Source of the DNA: a virus | Lineage: Duplodnaviria > Caudoviricetes | Virus record (IMG/VR): IMGVR_UViG_3300001525_000092 | Location: 1-64,000 of that record | DNA length: 64,000 nt | Direction: 5' to 3' (one strand) | Shown here: positions 6,334 to 26,800 of the stretch, piece by piece | Layout of the letters: each line of letters opens with the position of its first letter | Position numbering within the stretch: position 1 is the first letter of the stretch | Notes under the pieces: model-generated | Told to the model about the DNA's origin: nothing | Databases searched by the model: none | The model's input: the letters and a program-made list of their open reading frames with translations, nothing else | Position numbers and translations under genes: made by a program

Positions 6334-6408
6334 GGCGCCGCTGGCGGCCGCGAAAGTACTTGAGTTATAAATTATGAACCTGGGACTTTTTCGCGGCCGC
6401 CAGCGGCC
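6334..6408. repeat. GC-rich hairpin element, copy 1
   Basis: 19-bp inverted repeat gccgctggcggccgcgaaa (6337-6355) / tttcgcggccgccagcggc (6389-6407) around an AT core containing TATAAATTAT. Confidence 0.9.
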
Positions 6409-20750: not shown

Positions 20751-20766
20751 ACTTAATAGAGCAATT

Positions 20767-21969
20767 ATGATAAACTTAAGACAATATGTCCAAATATTCG
20801 AAGGTGGAGCATCGGGCCACATGGCACACATCATAGACGAGACTGACTTCACATGCCAAGACTTGCTTGACTTGATAGATGACATCTTTGGAGGCAAGAT
20901 AGCTAATGCGACAGAGAAGCTAGATGGCACTAACATACAAGCTTCTATGAATGACAAAGGAGAAGTAATCTTCATTCGCAACAAAGGTGACTTGAATAGT
21001 GAGAGAGGAGGAATGACTGTCCAAGACATGGTAGAGAAATGGAAAGACAAGCCAGCAACACAGAAGACTTTTGTATCAGCCGGCAAGACTTTAGAGAAGA
21101 TATTCAAGAGGATAGGAAGCAAGTTCTTCAATCCAGATCCATCCACTAGATTATTAATGAACTGTGAGTGCATCGTTGCTGGTACTACAAATATCATGTA
21201 CTATGATGATGATCAAGTTGATTTCCATAACATCTGGGTATACAAGAAGATTGGGGATGAATGGCACAAAGACAAAGTGACTAGAGATGGACTTGATGTG
21301 ATACAGAAAGCAATAGACAAAGATGACAAAGCAAAGCTAACACCTAATGTAATCATACAAGTCACTAAAGATTCTAATAAGTTTGCTAATGAGTACAAGA
21401 AGAAAGTTCTGGAGTTGTTCAAGTCTGAAGGTCTAGGAAAAGAAGCTACCATAGAAGATTGGAAGAAGAAACGATTTGAGAAAGTTGCACCGGAATGGAT
21501 GACGGAGAAGGATGCATTCTTCAATAGATGGTTCAACTCAGATAAGAGTGTGAACATCAGAATACTGAAGAAGAGCTACCCAGAACATGCTGATGAGATA
21601 ACATCTATAGATAAGAAAGACTACAAGAAATATGTGAAAGATGTGATAGAACCTATAGATGAGTTGTTCTTGGACATGTCTAACAAAGCAATAGAGCTCA
21701 CTAGCGGGTTGATGAATGACAATGTCAAAGACAAAGCAATACTCAATCTAAAGAATGAGATAGAAGCTACTAAGAAAGTTGTTGATGAGAAAGGCACTCA
21801 AGATGACAAAGACAAGCTCAAAGAACAAATTCTTAGATTACAGAAGATTGGAAACAAAGTGAATAGCACTGAAGGCATAGTCTTCACTTGGAAAGGAAGA
21901 ATGATGAAGATGACAGGTGGATTTGCTGTATGCAACCAGATAATTGGAATGAAATACAAAATAAAATAA
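20767..21969 (+). CDS. KxDG nucleotidyltransferase / ligase-like protein (DUF6267-like)
   Basis: GHMAH, ATEKLDGTN motif I, NCEC, EGIVF...MMKMTG motifs IV/V. Confidence 0.6.
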   Translation: MINLRQYVQIFEGGASGHMAHIIDETDFTCQDLLDLIDDIFGGKIANATEKLDGTNIQASMNDKGEVIFIRNKGDLNSERGGMTVQDMVEKWKDKPATQKTFVSAGKTLEKIFKRIGSKFFNPDPSTRLLMNCECIVAGTTNIMYYDDDQVDFHNIWVYKKIGDEWHKDKVTRDGLDVIQKAIDKDDKAKLTPNVIIQVTKDSNKFANEYKKKVLELFKSEGLGKEATIEDWKKKRFEKVAPEWMTEKDAFFNRWFNSDKSVNIRILKKSYPEHADEITSIDKKDYKKYVKDVIEPIDELFLDMSNKAIELTSGLMNDNVKDKAILNLKNEIEATKKVVDEKGTQDDKDKLKEQILRLQKIGNKVNSTEGIVFTWKGRMMKMTGGFAVCNQIIGMKYKIK

Positions 21970-21976
21970 GAATAGA

Positions 21977-21998
21977 AAGGAAGACTTAAGTCTTCCTT
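21977..21998. terminator. Bidirectional terminator (perfect 22-bp palindrome)
   Basis: aaggaagacttaagtcttcctt between convergent genes. Confidence 0.7.
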
Positions 21999-22467
21999 AA
22001 TTATAATTCAAATTAATTACAAGTTCACAAAAACCGTCACCGAATAAATCTTCATTCAATATATAATATAAGTTTGCGATTTCTTTCCCATAAAATAAAC
22101 AATTAGAATCCCAGTCATTAGTATCATATTTTATATGTGTACCAGATGCAGTAAATGTTCCTACCGTAAGTTTTGCTGATTCATATTTAGATATATCAAA
22201 AGTAATATCGTTATTAGTTACTTTATGTTTTACTCCATTGATAATATAACCCATTTCTGTTATCTTGGTAATTACTTCTTTTGTAGTACCATTAGACTCT
22301 ACTATTTCAATGTTGATACCAGCACAATCCGCATAATTTGAATTAACTCCAATAGTAACATTAAATGTAGTAAGTTCACTCCCATATCCTATATTTATCG
22401 ATGATTCAACAGTTTCATTATTTATAACTGCGGCGCCCATACTAATATCTTCAACTACTATATTCAA
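21997..22467 (-). CDS. Hypothetical beta-rich protein, probably the C-terminal part of the silent cassette gene
   Basis: TTG start 15 nt after stop of 22482-22727; joined in frame if A6 at 22485-22490 were A7; very AT-rich. Confidence 0.5.
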   Translation of the reverse strand: MNIVVEDISMGAAVINNETVESSINIGYGSELTTFNVTIGVNSNYADCAGINIEIVESNGTTKEVITKITEMGYIINGVKHKVTNNDITFDISKYESAKLTVGTFTASGTHIKYDTNDWDSNCLFYGKEIANLYYILNEDLFGDGFCELVINLNYN

Positions 22468-22481
22468 ATAGTATATACTTT

Positions 22482-22727
22482 CTATTTTTTACTGAAATAA
22501 AAAATTTTAGTTACACCATTATTATTTCTCCAGTCAGGACCATAAATAGTCTTACATGATATCTCGTAAGAGGTACTTGTTGAATCAACATAACCATCTT
22601 TTACAATGCTATATTTTCCGTTACTATCAGGTCCAGTAACTCTTAAGGTGGTACCTGTAGGATAAACGGATACTATACCGCTAAAGTTATTAGATTCATA
22701 TTTCTTCACTTCTCCACTCTGGGTGTA
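22482..22727 (-). CDS. Start-less alternative cassette (YTQSGEVKKYESNNFSG...)
   Basis: First 11 codons identical to codons 7-17 of 23161-24225; immediately preceded by in-frame TAA (22730-22728). Confidence 0.6.
   Translation of the reverse strand, partial: YTQSGEVKKYESNNFSGIVSVYPTGTTLRVTGPDSNGKYSIVKDGYVDSTSTSYEISCKTIYGPDWRNNNGVTKIFYFSKK
22695..22727. repeat. Left 33-bp inverted repeat of putative invertible segment
   Basis: ttcatatttcttcacttctccactctgggtgta is the exact reverse complement of 23179-23211. Confidence 0.95.
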
Positions 22728-22748
22728 TTAAGAAAATGTATGTAAGGC

Positions 22749-22781
22749 TTGAAATTTACTTTTCTGCTTTTCTATTTTTAA
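22749..22781 (+). promoter_or_regulatory. Putative promoter inside the invertible segment, pointing at 23161
   Basis: TTGAAA 22749-22754 and TATTTTTAA 22773-22781. Confidence 0.5.
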
Positions 22782-22828
22782 TTATATAAAGATGATGAAT
22801 GACATCATGTTGTTTCAAAATTTGTTCA

Positions 22829-23098
22829 CAACTATCTTCTCATCTAGCGATGATTTGATACGTCAAAGAAATTCATGACTAACTCATCATTTCTTATTGA
22901 ATAAAGCGTCAGAGTGAATAATGAAATAGCTACAAATCAATTAATCGTGTCTCTGACGCTTTTGTTGTCTCATTTAAATTGACTATCGTCAATCATATTA
23001 TTAAGACTTTGTAGACATCATTAAGTTGTTCTGAACTCTTATTGAAATATTCACTAACAAATTAGTTATCAAATCATCGCTAGATGAGAAGATAGTTG
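22829..23098. repeat. Nested perfect 32-bp inverted repeat with inner 12-bp inverted repeat
   Basis: caactatcttctcatctagcgatgatttgata (22829-22860) vs its reverse complement at 23067-23098; aaagcgtcagag (22903-22914) vs ctctgacgcttt (22951-22962). Confidence 0.9.
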
Positions 23099-23160
23099 GT
23101 GTGAATTTTTTGATTGATTCATGATTTCTTTCTATAAAATTATGAAGAGAAAGAAATTTT

Positions 23161-24225
23161 ATGGCGACAGGAGTTTGCTACACCCAGAGTGGAGAAGTGA
23201 AGAAATATGAAAGTAAACTTTTTTCATATTATATGGCTAAGCCAATGCCAATACCTTGTTACTTTAATATATATTATCATGATGAGGATAAAGATACAGA
23301 ATATAATTATAATGTAATTAATTCTAACTTAAATTATCCTTACTATTATACATATTTTGCTGAAGTAACTAATGCCACTTCGAATAAAATAGCATGGTAT
23401 ACATTTTCTGATATTACTAAATCTGAATATATAGATGCATATCAAAATGCATTAGTAACAAAATATGGAGTTAATGATAGTTACCAATATGCATATTTTC
23501 CAATGTACGCATATTATTCTATTGTGCCAGATCTAAGTACTAAAATAAGTACAACACGAGCCCAAAAATCTATCAATACAGGGTTAAATTTGGATTATTG
23601 CGTTATAGATTGGCAACATAATGGAGATCAGAATAATAATACTACTATATCTAGATCAAAATTGATATGTAAAGATGCTGTAGGAAATAAAATAGATGCA
23701 ATAACCATACATATTAATCCTATTTCTTATATAGATTTTCAAGAAAGTAGTAAAGTATGGAGAAAGGAAGTACATTTTATAAATAAAAATGTATTTGATG
23801 GTACAACTTCTTATATTAGACTAGATTATGATAACAATTCTGTAGTTCCTTGGAAAGGATACTGGAATACTAGAGCAATGTCTTATTTATATTCTTATTA
23901 TATGATCTTAGATATGAACATCAGTTATTTACACCCGCTTGTTGTAATGGATTATAAACATTCTGGAGATGAGAATGGTTGGAGTAGGATACATATTGGA
24001 TACGTAACTGCTACTATAAACAATAAGTATTCATATTACACAAATGGTACTGTATTTATAAAACAAGATTCTAGTATTTGGGAATATAATCATAAATATA
24101 GCAATAATTTTAATTCAAATGATAATAATAAAAAATATCTTTCTTGTGTAAAAGATTATAGACATTCCGGGGATGAAAATGGTAATAGCGCCATACAATT
24201 TACTTATCTTAATTGTGTGTTTTAA
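23161..24225 (+). CDS. Tyr/Asn-rich protein with three H-x-G-D-(E/Q)-N repeats (possible adhesin or receptor-binding module)
   Basis: DWQHNGDQN, DYKHSGDENG, DYRHSGDENG; codon usage more AT-rich than flanking genes. Confidence 0.6.
   Translation: MATGVCYTQSGEVKKYESKLFSYYMAKPMPIPCYFNIYYHDEDKDTEYNYNVINSNLNYPYYYTYFAEVTNATSNKIAWYTFSDITKSEYIDAYQNALVTKYGVNDSYQYAYFPMYAYYSIVPDLSTKISTTRAQKSINTGLNLDYCVIDWQHNGDQNNNTTISRSKLICKDAVGNKIDAITIHINPISYIDFQESSKVWRKEVHFINKNVFDGTTSYIRLDYDNNSVVPWKGYWNTRAMSYLYSYYMILDMNISYLHPLVVMDYKHSGDENGWSRIHIGYVTATINNKYSYYTNGTVFIKQDSSIWEYNHKYSNNFNSNDNNKKYLSCVKDYRHSGDENGNSAIQFTYLNCVF
23179..23211. repeat. Right 33-bp inverted repeat of putative invertible segment
   Basis: tacacccagagtggagaagtgaagaaatatgaa, codons 7-17 of ORF 23161. 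Confidence 0.95.
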
Positions 24226-24226
24226 G

Positions 24227-24260
24227 GAGAGATGGACCTTCAATTGAAGGTCCATCTCTC
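24227..24260. terminator. Bidirectional terminator (perfect 34-bp palindrome)
   Basis: gagagatggaccttcaattgaaggtccatctctc between convergent genes. Confidence 0.7.
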
Positions 24261-24770
24261 TCTATTGTATCTAATGTAGTTGCATAGAACATCTCTTAAG
24301 TCATACTCACATTCTACATTGATTTCTATATATCTTCCTTCTTGCAATCCTTTGATGTCATCATCATAGTGTTCCATTGCTCTCTCATAAGCAAGCAAAT
24401 TCTTCTGAGTAGGATCTTTCTTCCATCTATCTCTCAATCTGATGAGCCACCAATCTTTAATGTTCAATGATGGCATCACATTGACATAGTCTATGCCTCT
24501 CTTCTTCAACTCATCTCTCACTAACTGATGTGTGCTAGTGAATACACAGACGCCTTGGTCTATCATAGTCTCTACATAATTGACATAGATCTGTACCCAG
24601 TTAGCTGGTCTCTCCCATCCTTCTGTTCTCATCAGACTTGTCTCCATGTCTATGATAGGAATCCATCTACCATCAGGCATCTGAATTGACTCACCTCCTA
24701 TGCTGGACTTTCCTATTGCTGGATATCCGCAAAAAACTAATCCTTTCATAATCTTATTTGATGTCATCAT
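24240..24770 (-). CDS. P-loop NTPase/kinase-like protein
   Basis: Walker A CGYPAIGKS. Confidence 0.7.
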   Translation of the reverse strand: MMTSNKIMKGLVFCGYPAIGKSSIGGESIQMPDGRWIPIIDMETSLMRTEGWERPANWVQIYVNYVETMIDQGVCVFTSTHQLVRDELKKRGIDYVNVMPSLNIKDWWLIRLRDRWKKDPTQKNLLAYERAMEHYDDDIKGLQEGRYIEINVECEYDLRDVLCNYIRYNRERWTFN

Positions 24771-24927
24771 AATTTATGTCAATATATATATATGAATCTT
24801 GTATTTCTTTTGGTATGTCATCTATTGACTCGCCGAAATATGTTGCTAACTCATCTAGATTATTTTGACAGAGCAACTTATCATGAAAATTACTCTGTCT
24901 TTCAATGTATTCTCTTAAGTTTATCAT
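24754..24927 (-). CDS. Small hypothetical protein (57 aa, absent from ORF track)
   Basis: MINLREYIERQSNFHDK...YDDIK*; ATG overlaps the thyX stop. Confidence 0.55.
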   Translation of the reverse strand: MINLREYIERQSNFHDKLLCQNNLDELATYFGESIDDIPKEIQDSYIYIDINYDDIK

Positions 24928-25751
24928 AATTCTAATCCTATAGTCTTGAACTCATTATGTATCATTGTTGAGAGCTGTTTCATTTGTGGATGAACTTTCC
25001 CAGTCACTTCTCTATATCTCAAGTCAAAGAAATGTCTCCAATCTAAAATAGTTCCTGACACTATCATCTCACACTTAGTAGCTTTAGGAAGAATTTGAGC
25101 ACACTCTTGAGCATTAGCACCTAACTTAGCAAGCTTAAGATAAGCATACTCTGCACGTTCCATGTCTTTCTCCCATTCTCTCATGACATTTTGGTCTTTA
25201 ATATAGATGCCAAAGTTTGGACGAATGAAGTTCACGTTGTTGTCAAACTTGTCTTTAGAATAAGCACAGTAACGTGTGCTCTCCACGCAATAAGAGAGCA
25301 CACGATGTCTAGTGAACTCTCCAAGTACTTGCAAGTTAGTGACTAGTCTTACTGTAAGTCTTTTCTCATGACAACCTTCTATGTATGCACACTGATACTT
25401 CAATGCATCTTCTAGTTCATTCTCTACAATCACTCTATAGTTAGTAGTTATATATAAGAAGTTGCCATCATTAGAAACAGAACTATACTTTGACACTTTA
25501 TCATTGTGCTGAAATTCTGTAGCTAAACTATCTGATACAGGAATCTTAAGATAGATTGTAAGGTGCTCGATAGGAGCATAATGGGTACTGTTCACCATCC
25601 TGTCTACAAACTTCTCCGCAGATCCTTCTTCTATCCTGTCTAATGAATGATAGCAAGTTCTGCCTGCTACTTCTGCTATCTTCTTGCCTTCTGTCAATGT
25701 TGCTTCGCCTTGACTAATGATTACTACTGACTGATTCTCTATGATGTTCAT
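24924..25751 (-). CDS. thyX: FAD-dependent thymidylate synthase
   Basis: AGRTCY, HYAPIEH, FTRHRVLSYCVESTRY (RHRx7S), WRHFFDLR, HPQM. Confidence 0.93.
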   Translation of the reverse strand: MNIIENQSVVIISQGEATLTEGKKIAEVAGRTCYHSLDRIEEGSAEKFVDRMVNSTHYAPIEHLTIYLKIPVSDSLATEFQHNDKVSKYSSVSNDGNFLYITTNYRVIVENELEDALKYQCAYIEGCHEKRLTVRLVTNLQVLGEFTRHRVLSYCVESTRYCAYSKDKFDNNVNFIRPNFGIYIKDQNVMREWEKDMERAEYAYLKLAKLGANAQECAQILPKATKCEMIVSGTILDWRHFFDLRYREVTGKVHPQMKQLSTMIHNEFKTIGLEL

Positions 25752-25822: not shown

Positions 25823-26800
25823 CTAGAATAGATTGAACTCTTCTACTTGCTTCTTTGTAAGCTTACCGCTATGTTCATTCTCTTCATGCTTCTTCTTTCT
25901 ATTCAGTTGATCTTTCTTGTAAGCATACTCAAAGATTCTGTTCATTCTCTGCTCATCATACGGAAATGCACCCATGTATGCTTTGTACTTCTGTCCTTTG
26001 CCGAGAACTGCATCATCATTGTCATATTCTATTTTTGGTAAGTTCACTATCATGCATTGCACATGAGATGGTTCTGTTCCTTCTGGTAGATAGTTCTGGA
26101 GCAATGCTTCTTTGTAGTTGTATACTTGAAGAGTGTAAGTGTTCCAGTCTATGGCGAGCAAGTCTTTAGCTGGTCCTAACAGATGCTCTGTCCACTTTGT
26201 TCCTGATGTAGTGATTGACTCATTTGACTTCCAATCTATCACTATCCAAGTGTCTGTTCTCTTGTTGTAGAAGAGTGCATCAAGTCGACCTTTCACATAG
26301 AACTCATTGTCATTGACCTTCACTCTGTTCCATACTTCTATCTCTCTACCAACAAACACTACATCTCCTGACTTCATGATTCTCTCATAGAACTCATCAA
26401 ATGCTGTGATATGTCCTTTGAGTCTCTCATCATTCTCAACATCATTGTCAAGCATGTACTCTTCTAATGCTAACTTGTCTTCATTCAAGATGCAGTCTGT
26501 ATAAGCATCAACTTTCTTTCCATACTCTCTAGATACAGATGCTTTGTCCTCCCACATCTGCATGATTTCTTTTGCTGTCTTTCCAGTCCACTGGCACTGG
26601 CATTTCTTGCCTTTCTCTTCACACTTCTTAGCTACACCTTCTTTGTCAAATGGTGTAGTGATGAGTCCATTTACTGCACTTATAGTGACATAAGATAAAG
26701 ATCTGTCTACAAATCTATTATCAGTATTTCTTAGTTTCTTTTTATATTCATTTTCCATATATGAAAGATAGAAACTATGACATAAATAATTCATAAACAA
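25823..26800 (-). CDS. PD-(D/E)XK exonuclease (start probably Met at 26758)
   Basis: GREIEV...KGRLDALF...VIDWKSN...YTLQVYNY. Confidence 0.8.
   Translation of the reverse strand: MFMNYLCHSFYLSYMENEYKKKLRNTDNRFVDRSLSYVTISAVNGLITTPFDKEGVAKKCEEKGKKCQCQWTGKTAKEIMQMWEDKASVSREYGKKVDAYTDCILNEDKLALEEYMLDNDVENDERLKGHITAFDEFYERIMKSGDVVFVGREIEVWNRVKVNDNEFYVKGRLDALFYNKRTDTWIVIDWKSNESITTSGTKWTEHLLGPAKDLLAIDWNTYTLQVYNYKEALLQNYLPEGTEPSHVQCMIVNLPKIEYDNDDAVLGKGQKYKAYMGAFPYDEQRMNRIFEYAYKKDQLNRKKKHEENEHSGKLTKKQVEEFNLF

Follow-up and report, generated by a model that had tools for sequence, protein, structure and literature searches.

A probable two-level DNA inversion switch, apparently homology-driven, in a large human-gut phage

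Introduction

How two opposite-facing reading frames can be served by a single start codon is the question raised by a locus at 22-24 kb of the window analysed here, which is the first 64 kb (64,000 nucleotides) of a 148-kb viral contig (IMG/VR record IMGVR_UViG_3300001525_000092; G000). The contig comes from the human gut and was judged to be about 52% complete; the whole phage genome is about 290 kb. A preliminary description of the window had proposed that inverted repeats of 33 bp enclose an invertible promoter and start codon, which would switch between two alternative cassettes. We followed up this proposal in the window and in related phage genomes. The locus is probably a two-level DNA inversion switch driven by homology, in a large and probably virulent phage. 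The comparison supports an invertible, start-bearing segment that would be fused in frame to either of two fixed cassettes facing in opposite directions.

Anatomy of the locus

Two pairs of perfect inverted repeats, one nested within the other, and the frames on either side of them make up the locus:

22695..22727, unstranded: outer inverted repeat, left arm, 33 nt exact; its minus strand codes YTQSGEVKKYE
23179..23211, unstranded: outer inverted repeat, right arm, identical with codons 7-17 of the expressed gene
22829..22860, unstranded: inner inverted repeat, left arm, 32 nt exact
23067..23098, unstranded: inner inverted repeat, right arm, 32 nt exact
22728..22828, plus strand: 'P flank', 101 nt, no start codon; TTGAAA (22749-22754), an 18-nt spacer and an inward-facing TATTTTTA (22773-22780)
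22861..23066, unstranded: putative invertible core, 206 nt, in the window in the minority orientation relative to the start codon
23099..23178, plus strand: 'ATG flank', TATAAAAT (23133-23140), a purine-rich stretch, the ATG at 23161 and codons 1-6 (MATGVC)
23161..24225, plus strand: right cassette, in the expressed position, 354 aa, no known family
22482..22727, minus strand: left cassette, proximal part, start-less, 81 codons, YTQSGEVKKYESNNFSG..., with an in-frame TAA ahead

The outer repeat is perfect over 33 nt, as previously described, with one copy on each strand (left arm minus, right arm plus) and 451 nt between the arms, and none of 100 shuffles contained a match. It can be extended to 38 nt at 95% identity (22690-22727 and 23179-23216), and no further copy of the 33-mer, one of the checks originally proposed, exists elsewhere in the 148-kb contig. 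The second perfect pair of 32 nt, nested within the first with 206 nt between its arms, is missing from the preliminary description. The outer and inner pairs are unrelated to each other and have no common motif. Read from its sequence, the switch in the window is a two-level (nested) one.

The codons ATG GCG ACA GGA GTT TGC (23161-23178) continue in frame through the right arm into the 354-aa open reading frame (ORF; 23161-24225). The eleven residues of the right arm, YTQSGEVKKYE, are also specified by the minus strand of the left arm; both points had been noted before. It had also been claimed that the left arm heads a different frame without a start. Indeed, a TAA lies directly ahead in frame and there is no start codon, but this frame extends over only 81 codons before it is frameshifted. 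The 451-nt segment holds the sole ribosome site, ATG and first six codons for both flanking frames. The two flanks of the core are inverted and diverged paralogues of each other; at the position of the ATG region, the P flank has TTTCAAG instead. The module is AT-rich, as had been remarked: its GC content at 22-24 kb is 0.28-0.29, and the other 1-kb intervals of the window range from 0.32 to 0.42.

Relatives and orientation states

A megablast search of 21-25 kb against deposited phages gave no match. Relatives were sought through the neighbouring ligase-like protein, a degenerate pattern of the start region, a 22-nt core word and contigs encoding cassette proteins. We obtained 15 further distinct loci with the module from human-gut assemblies; several of the contigs are 249-301 kb long, and two have terminal repeats. 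The position of the module is constant, with the ligase-like gene on one side and a P-loop kinase-like gene followed by thyX on the other. In a complete relative (G002/L004), only about 400 nt separate the same neighbours, with neither switch motifs nor a long inverted repeat, indicating that the module is accessory. Its parts follow a constant order: the outer repeat of 29-46 nt, a flank of 80-101 nt, the inner repeat of 32 nt, the core of 183-206 nt, the inner repeat, the other flank and the outer repeat. The relatives share this design but differ in the sequences of the repeats. Their ATG flank carries TATAAAAT, a purine-rich stretch, the ATG and the codons M-[AVP]-[TSY]-G-[VIL]-C, and in 14 genomes there is one such flank per module. 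The outer repeat codes YTQSGxxK(K/R)YE in both frames in all genomes. Four single-cassette genomes (L006, L017/L022, L024) are without the left outer arm and keep the inner repeats.

With the fixed ligase-like and kinase-like neighbours as reference, we oriented the loci of 14 genomes and scored the direction of the ATG flank and that of the core relative to the ATG:

ATG flank toward the kinase side, core co-directional: 10 genomes
ATG flank toward the kinase side, core inverted: the window and L029
ATG flank toward the ligase side, core co-directional: L020
ATG flank toward the ligase side, core inverted: L021

Related genomes thus contain the flipped state for which the preliminary description had proposed to look: the ATG flank points kinase-ward in 12 and ligase-ward in 2, and all four combinations of outer and inner state were seen. 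The flanks of the window are collinear with those of L003 and L006, and its core aligns with theirs only as the reverse complement. In L025 and L029, the cores are 95% identical as reverse complements and 56% in the forward sense. Since the flanks of these two loci are 99% identical while their cores match only when reverse-complemented, we take this flip to be recent.

We also considered whether the repeats or the orientation states could have arisen from mis-assembly of metagenomes. Assemblers do struggle here: many short contigs end near the locus, and one relative (L015) shows a double P flank. Such breaks in the assemblies can be attributed to the switch. However, assemblies in IMG/VR, ENA and Logan, which were produced by different assemblers and include contigs of 290-300 kb, independently show the same architecture. 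Moreover, the assembly names of several contigs give a final word size of 141; as this is longer than the 32-33-nt repeats, the orientation in these contigs reflects reads. Mis-assembly is consequently the least probable of the explanations considered here, and we give it hardly any weight.

Evolution of the repeat arms

In each of the 11 two-cassette genomes, the two arms of a pair are identical or have a single mismatch in 32 positions. From one genome to another, the outer arms show a mean of 4.9 differences (seven distinct sequences) and the inner arms a mean of 8.7 and up to 19 (nine distinct sequences). The inner repeat of L030 is almost unrelated to that of the window and is still perfect and exactly 32 nt long. 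In nine of the 11 genomes, the silent cassette has no in-frame start between the last stop codon and the repeat. These start-less cassettes are open for 247-581 codons, the first possible start being codon 266 in L030 and codon 95 in L020.

Two variant forms depart from this pattern. In L015, a single 163-nt perfect repeat, composed of the outer repeat, the P flank and the inner repeat, lies on both sides and there is no ATG flank, as would be expected of a long conversion tract. In the L032 lineage, which serves as a natural control, an ATG flank is present on both sides (MATGIC and MVTGVC), and the arms have decayed to 6 differences in 32 positions with no repeat of at least 18 nt; this form is identical in 9 of 10 retrieved contigs, which come from different samples. 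From the two variants, it follows that perfect arms accompany a single start and that long-conversion-tract forms exist. Because the repeats decayed where both genes have an ATG of their own, they are not required for expression as such.

The arms also bear on the possibility of a static head-to-head gene pair, in which the outer repeat is a shared N-terminal peptide, the inner repeat gives a leader with a long RNA stem (e.g. a processing site) and the orientation differences are rare accidents. A static pair would leave unexplained why the arms are identical at synonymous and non-coding positions within genomes and diverged between genomes, why cassettes free of start codons are kept open for hundreds of codons, and why all four state combinations occur in separate lineages, including the flip between 99%-identical flanks. 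The decay of the repeats where both genes own an ATG is another point against it. In its favour, the 386-nt leader region folds with z = -7.6, the core contains a hairpin with RNA-type covariation (see below), one state is common to 10 of 14 genomes, and the L032 lineage represents a viable fixed two-gene form. Taken together, we regard the static pair as highly improbable.

Recombinase searches and proposed mechanism

As had been stated, no recombinase gene is adjacent to the locus, and the wider search for a serine or tyrosine recombinase that had been suggested was also negative in the genomes covered. Resolvase and Phage_integrase profiles found nothing in seven phage genomes (the contig of the window and six relatives), including the complete G003, which carries the inner switch; the profile controls were positive in 10-14 of 14 control genomes. 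For Resolvase (PF00239, serine recombinase), the control was positive in 13 of 14. RecA and Rad51 profiles gave nothing in the phage, which encodes a gp46/Rad50-like ATPase. The idea that the core belongs to an IS110/bridge-RNA system was dropped, as there is no DEDD_Tnp_IS110 in four genomes (G000-G003). A 325-aa protein encoded 1.6 kb from the switch (25823-26800, minus strand) has a weak match to PD-(D/E)XK nucleases (E 0.0012, below the cut-off), and its place is conserved in L006.

We favour homology-dependent recombination because no recombinase was found, the two repeat pairs have no common motif and the arms evolve as described above; the gp46/Rad50-like ATPase points the same way. In the mechanism that we propose, the 451-nt segment would act as an 'expression head' with the only translation start, comprising the purine-rich leader, the ATG and six codons. 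Recombination between the outer repeats would turn the head, so that MATGVC-YTQSGEVKKYE would become fused to the other cassette and a stop codon would be set ahead of the first one. The inner 32-nt repeats would turn the core of about 200 nt with its hairpin independently of the outer flip. There would be no dedicated invertase: phage or host enzymes could join the short perfect repeats by homology-dependent recombination, and accompanying gene conversion would keep the arms identical. The inner flip would change which strand of the hairpin is transcribed and could hence modulate expression; our best guess is that it serves modulation or on/off control of the transcript of the head. The cassettes may be alternative late proteins with a common 17-residue N-terminal docking or targeting peptide.

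The same anatomy and outcome would be obtained with a site-specific recombinase acting in trans, either a serine or tyrosine invertase of the host (probably one of the Bacteroidales) or an unrecognised phage enzyme, that reads the core-proximal ends of the repeats. A host enzyme is a serious rival because 32-33 nt is short for efficient general recombination, because the RecA and Rad51 searches in the phage were negative, and because the core-proximal 12-13 nt of each repeat (TACACYCAGAGTG; GAWGAWTYGRTA) are the best conserved across genomes, which would also fit a host-supplied site-specific enzyme. In addition, the repeats keep to a length of about 32 nt, which is typical of recombinase sites, and Bacteroidales hosts have many trans-acting invertases (Mpi, Tsr). 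However, the lack of a common motif would call for two enzymes or a relaxed specificity, and the motif of the Mpi site, ARACGTWCGT, is absent from both repeats. The distal 20 nt vary between genomes and are identical within them, which conservative site-specific recombination neither needs nor makes. L015 with its two P flanks and L032 with its two ATG flanks look like products of gene conversion, and the seven phage genomes searched yielded no such recombinase. We therefore consider an enzyme in trans rather unlikely, though far from negligible.

Core hairpin and promoter candidates

A conserved element lies within the core:

22903..22962, minus strand: conserved core hairpin, 12-bp stem (AAAGCGTCAGAG / CTCTGACGCTTT) and 36-nt loop; wobble pairs favour the minus strand

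At the centre of the loop, 12 of the 13 distinct copies agree over 24 nt; L030 retains 19 nt of these, which are common to all 13. One pair of the stem changes from G:C to A:U in two genomes. Five further changes affect one side only, and each of them leaves a G.U pair if the hairpin is read along the strand that runs with the ATG in the majority state. The pattern points to an RNA element that would be read in this direction and would be antisense in the window. An Rfam search of 22400-23500 gave no match. Both the core and the P flank contain small ORFs of 9-28 codons, which were discarded as candidates because they are not conserved between genomes. An exact 24-nt string in common with the hairpin loop is present in L018/L028 (a 43-kb contig labelled as a giant virus) with nothing else around it, probably by chance.

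The promoter had been placed at 22749-22781. The motif, TTGAAA-N18-cTATTTTTA, is present as described, but it is one of two candidates and stands in the diverged paralogue of the ATG flank. Facing the core, it is a good fit (22749-22780) to the TATTTTTA motif and a poor one to TTGAAA-N16-CTATATT, and the ATG is 388 nt away. Of the 25 sites with TATTTTTA, 15 are followed by an ORF start at a distance of 25-55 nt, whereas 11% of random positions are (P = 5e-9); control motifs of the same composition were found upstream of ORFs in 0-17% of cases. We consider TATTTTTA a candidate late promoter. Its sites in the contig include 33482 (minus), 35924 (minus), 39080 (minus), 47632 (minus) and 110244 (plus), and several of the downstream ORFs start with an MKSL..E leader. 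The other candidate, TATAAAAT, is located 28 nt ahead of the ATG in the ATG flank, and 4 of its 13 copies in the genome precede ORFs.

TTGAAA-N16-CTATATT has 22 copies in the genome, all on the plus strand, against 0.8 expected. The form TTGAAAT-N16-CTATATT, followed by nnCATGTCAA, occurs over the whole contig (e.g. 791, 3822, 8658, 26811, 31533 and 47966) and is, on sequence grounds, a strong candidate for a phage-wide promoter class.

The cassettes

Beyond its 81 codons, the left cassette of the window continues as follows:

22485..22490, minus strand: A6 run, AGT AAA AAA TAG on the minus strand, at the frame change of the left cassette
21997..22467, minus strand: left cassette, distal part, 156-aa ORF in the -1 frame relative to the proximal part

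The TAG at 22482-22484 follows the A6 run, and the frame is open for about 160 further codons in the -1 frame, to 21997. The A6 run could mark a mutation that shifts the frame, an error in a homopolymer or a site of -1 slippage. In L003, the left cassette is intact, with 301 codons, and its N-terminal region is weakly matched by the proximal part; a homologue search with the distal part returned only itself. The sole full-length relative of the right cassette is the start-less cassette of L030 (49% identity over 358 aa, E 1e-109), which lies across the switch from it and of which the gene caller recovered only the last 93 residues. The AlphaFold model of the right cassette was unusable (pLDDT 32), and the ESM Atlas model was poor and gave no usable match.

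Searches of all cassettes against Pfam and PHROGs found no family. One cassette family, termed A, occupies the expressed position in L003, L022, L023, L025 and L029 and the silent position in L020 and L027; the copies of L022 (expressed) and L027 (silent) are 93% identical over 533 aa, which, like the start-less relative in L030, speaks for a switch that makes use of silent cassettes. Family A has 184 relatives in gut metagenomes, and since most of them match only about the first 100 residues of the query, the remainder appears to be variable. Its model, built from 41 sequences (pLDDT 72, pTM 0.76), consists almost entirely of beta structure. Within it, residues 85-199 are similar to the Ig/CnaB-type sandwiches found in pilins and in Bacteroides 'cell adhesion' proteins (Z 6.0, rmsd 3.0 over 89 residues). 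Against a viral structure library, there were weak matches to 'binding domain' and 'tail collar fiber' proteins, and a Foldseek search against the PDB gave none at E <= 0.001. The model is compatible with a binding protein and not diagnostic of one. The suggestion that the locus varies an adhesin or receptor-binding module thus draws weak support from the Ig/CnaB-like sandwich (Z 6) of one cassette family, while the cassettes of the window itself are orphans.

All cassettes share a 17-residue N-terminus, in which Cys6 and Glu17 are invariant, and we suspect from this conservation that it is a docking or targeting peptide. A lipoprotein signal was ruled out, as only five residues precede the Cys, and the capsid-targeting-like leader MKSLxEYIxE does not match the N-terminus of the cassettes.

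Terminators and neighbouring genes

Terminator-like palindromes had been reported at both ends of the module (21977-21998 and 24226-24261), and four such palindromes do occur in the region against 0.6 expected:

21977..21998, unstranded: palindromic terminator-like hairpin on the ligase side, serving the ligase-like gene (plus) and the left cassette (minus); the same type bounds the module in relatives
24226..24261, unstranded: palindromic terminator-like hairpin on the kinase side, bounding the module

The two terminators of the window differ from each other. Many modules of relatives are bounded on both sides by an identical and perfect palindromic terminator, GGCTCGATCTTAAGATCGAGCC. A sequence of this kind could serve the whole module as its inverted repeat, or provide the joint at which cassettes are exchanged.

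As terminators, this phage uses perfect palindromes whose loop is set within CTTAAG or CAATTG; they are found at 21977, 24227, 31942, 34470 and 57100 in the window and at 71734, 89031, 93052, 126976 and 138488 in the rest of the contig. GC-rich dyads (GCCGCTGGCGGCC...) with arms 33 nt apart stand out in this AT-rich genome at 6337-6407 of the window and 131429-131513 of the contig. Another inverted repeat, of 24 nt (96%), lies at 20763-20786 and 24908-24931 and comprises the ribosome sites and first codons (MINLRQY and MINLREY) of two opposite-facing genes. These genes are 4.1 kb apart, with the ligase-like gene, the switch and the kinase-like gene between them; the repeat is probably a by-product of a shared leader peptide. 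A 57-aa ORF at 24754-24927 (minus strand) is similar only to the N-terminal 47 residues (77%) of a 269-aa protein, which is placed between the kinase-like gene and thyX in L006 and L004, the window copy being a truncated remnant.

Comparison with known inversion systems

By analogy, the switch is of the type of the expression-site inversions of sap in Campylobacter fetus and vsa in Mycoplasma pulmonis, and unlike those of Mu or P1. A single element bears the start, the other cassettes are start-less, and the recombination site is inside the shared conserved 5' coding region. The S-layer sap promoter of Campylobacter fetus reportedly inverts in a RecA-dependent manner without a dedicated invertase, a 'nested DNA inversion' said to have been described by Dworkin and Blaser in 1996-97. 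As in sap, one expression element is placed between opposed cassettes, recombination would take place in the shared conserved 5' coding region, and the inversions are nested. The shared region, however, extends over hundreds of nt in sap and 29-46 nt here; the flipping piece of 451 nt carries the start codon and six codons and resides in a phage genome; and the inner inversion turns a non-coding core instead of extra cassettes. The vsa (HvsR) and vsp/vpma systems of Mycoplasma have many cassettes and an adjoining dedicated tyrosine recombinase. The resemblance to vsa lies in one expression site with promoter, start and 5' end, in silent genes without these, and in a site within the conserved 5' coding sequence. 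Our locus, in contrast, has two cassettes, and the search of seven phage genomes revealed neither a serine nor a tyrosine recombinase.

Programmed phage inversions are known from temperate phages, in which an adjacent invertase flips the tips of tail fibres. The G segment of Mu and the C segment of P1 (Gin/Cin) are similar in that a phage-borne inversion picks between two proteins with a common constant N-terminal part. Their variable 3' parts flip next to a fixed promoter and constant 5' part, the serine invertase is adjacent, and the genes are those of tail fibres. In our locus, the arrangement is reversed, as the preliminary description had pointed out: the constant head (the start and six codons of the 17-residue constant part) would flip, and the variable cassettes lie outside the segment. 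No invertase gene was found in the phage genomes searched, and a role of the cassettes in tail fibres would be conjecture. Switches of the Gin/Cin/Hin type use 26-bp gix/hix-type sites and a Fis-bound enhancer; the repeats here are 32-33 nt long. The invertible promoters of Bacteroidales share the short inverted repeats, some trans-acting enzymes, the ecosystem and, probably, the host order. In these promoters, among them those of the Bacteroides polysaccharide loci, and in fimS, the repeats enclose a promoter outside the coding sequence and one downstream operon is switched on or off, whereas the outer repeats here form codons 7-17 of both cassettes and the start codon lies inside the segment. 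The inner unit could be of the invertible-promoter kind; no promoter can be placed within it. In a survey of gene-altering inversions (PMC9881135), recombinase families were among those most enriched beside the predicted loci, which differs from this locus.

Discussion

Besides the short repeats, the negative RecA and Rad51 searches and the conserved repeat ends considered above, several observations weigh against a homology-driven, two-level switch. The orientation differences were observed between diverged genomes, and a search of the viral contig collection, from which records close to the window may be missing, gave no exact match to the flipped junctions of either the outer or the inner unit of the window. 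The same cassette families are seen on either side of the switch in different genomes, for which a simple inversion of the head is insufficient. L015 could be a chimeric assembly; if it joins two isomers, a mixed population would be implied. The promoter may be either of two candidates, TATTTTTA at 22773 or TATAAAAT at 23133. T runs follow the hairpin on both strands, and an orientation-dependent effect is not evident from the sequence. Finally, the left cassette of the window is broken after 81 codons, and the alternative state in this genome may be defective. Despite these points, we consider the homology-driven switch the probable explanation of the locus.

What sets the locus apart is that it belongs to a phage, that the genomes searched have no serine or tyrosine recombinase, that its repeats are very short and evolve in concert, and that a second unit is nested within it. 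A wider interpretation, which we hold to be possible and offer only tentatively, is a recombinase-free, multi-level inversion in large virulent gut phages, in which a single start would be moved between start-less orphan genes by short repeats that stay perfect solely through their own recombination, a structured RNA would be flipped by the nested unit, and cassettes would change sides by way of the terminators. Such a system might maintain itself and allow a lytic phage to hedge its bets with late proteins, which may be carried in the virion or injected.

If switching is confirmed, lytic gut phages would be hedging their bets with alternative orphan proteins, and the locus would be a natural case of inversion sustained by short homology alone. 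More than 180 uncharacterised gut-phage proteins would then be marked as variable cargo, making them candidates for roles in host range or anti-defence.

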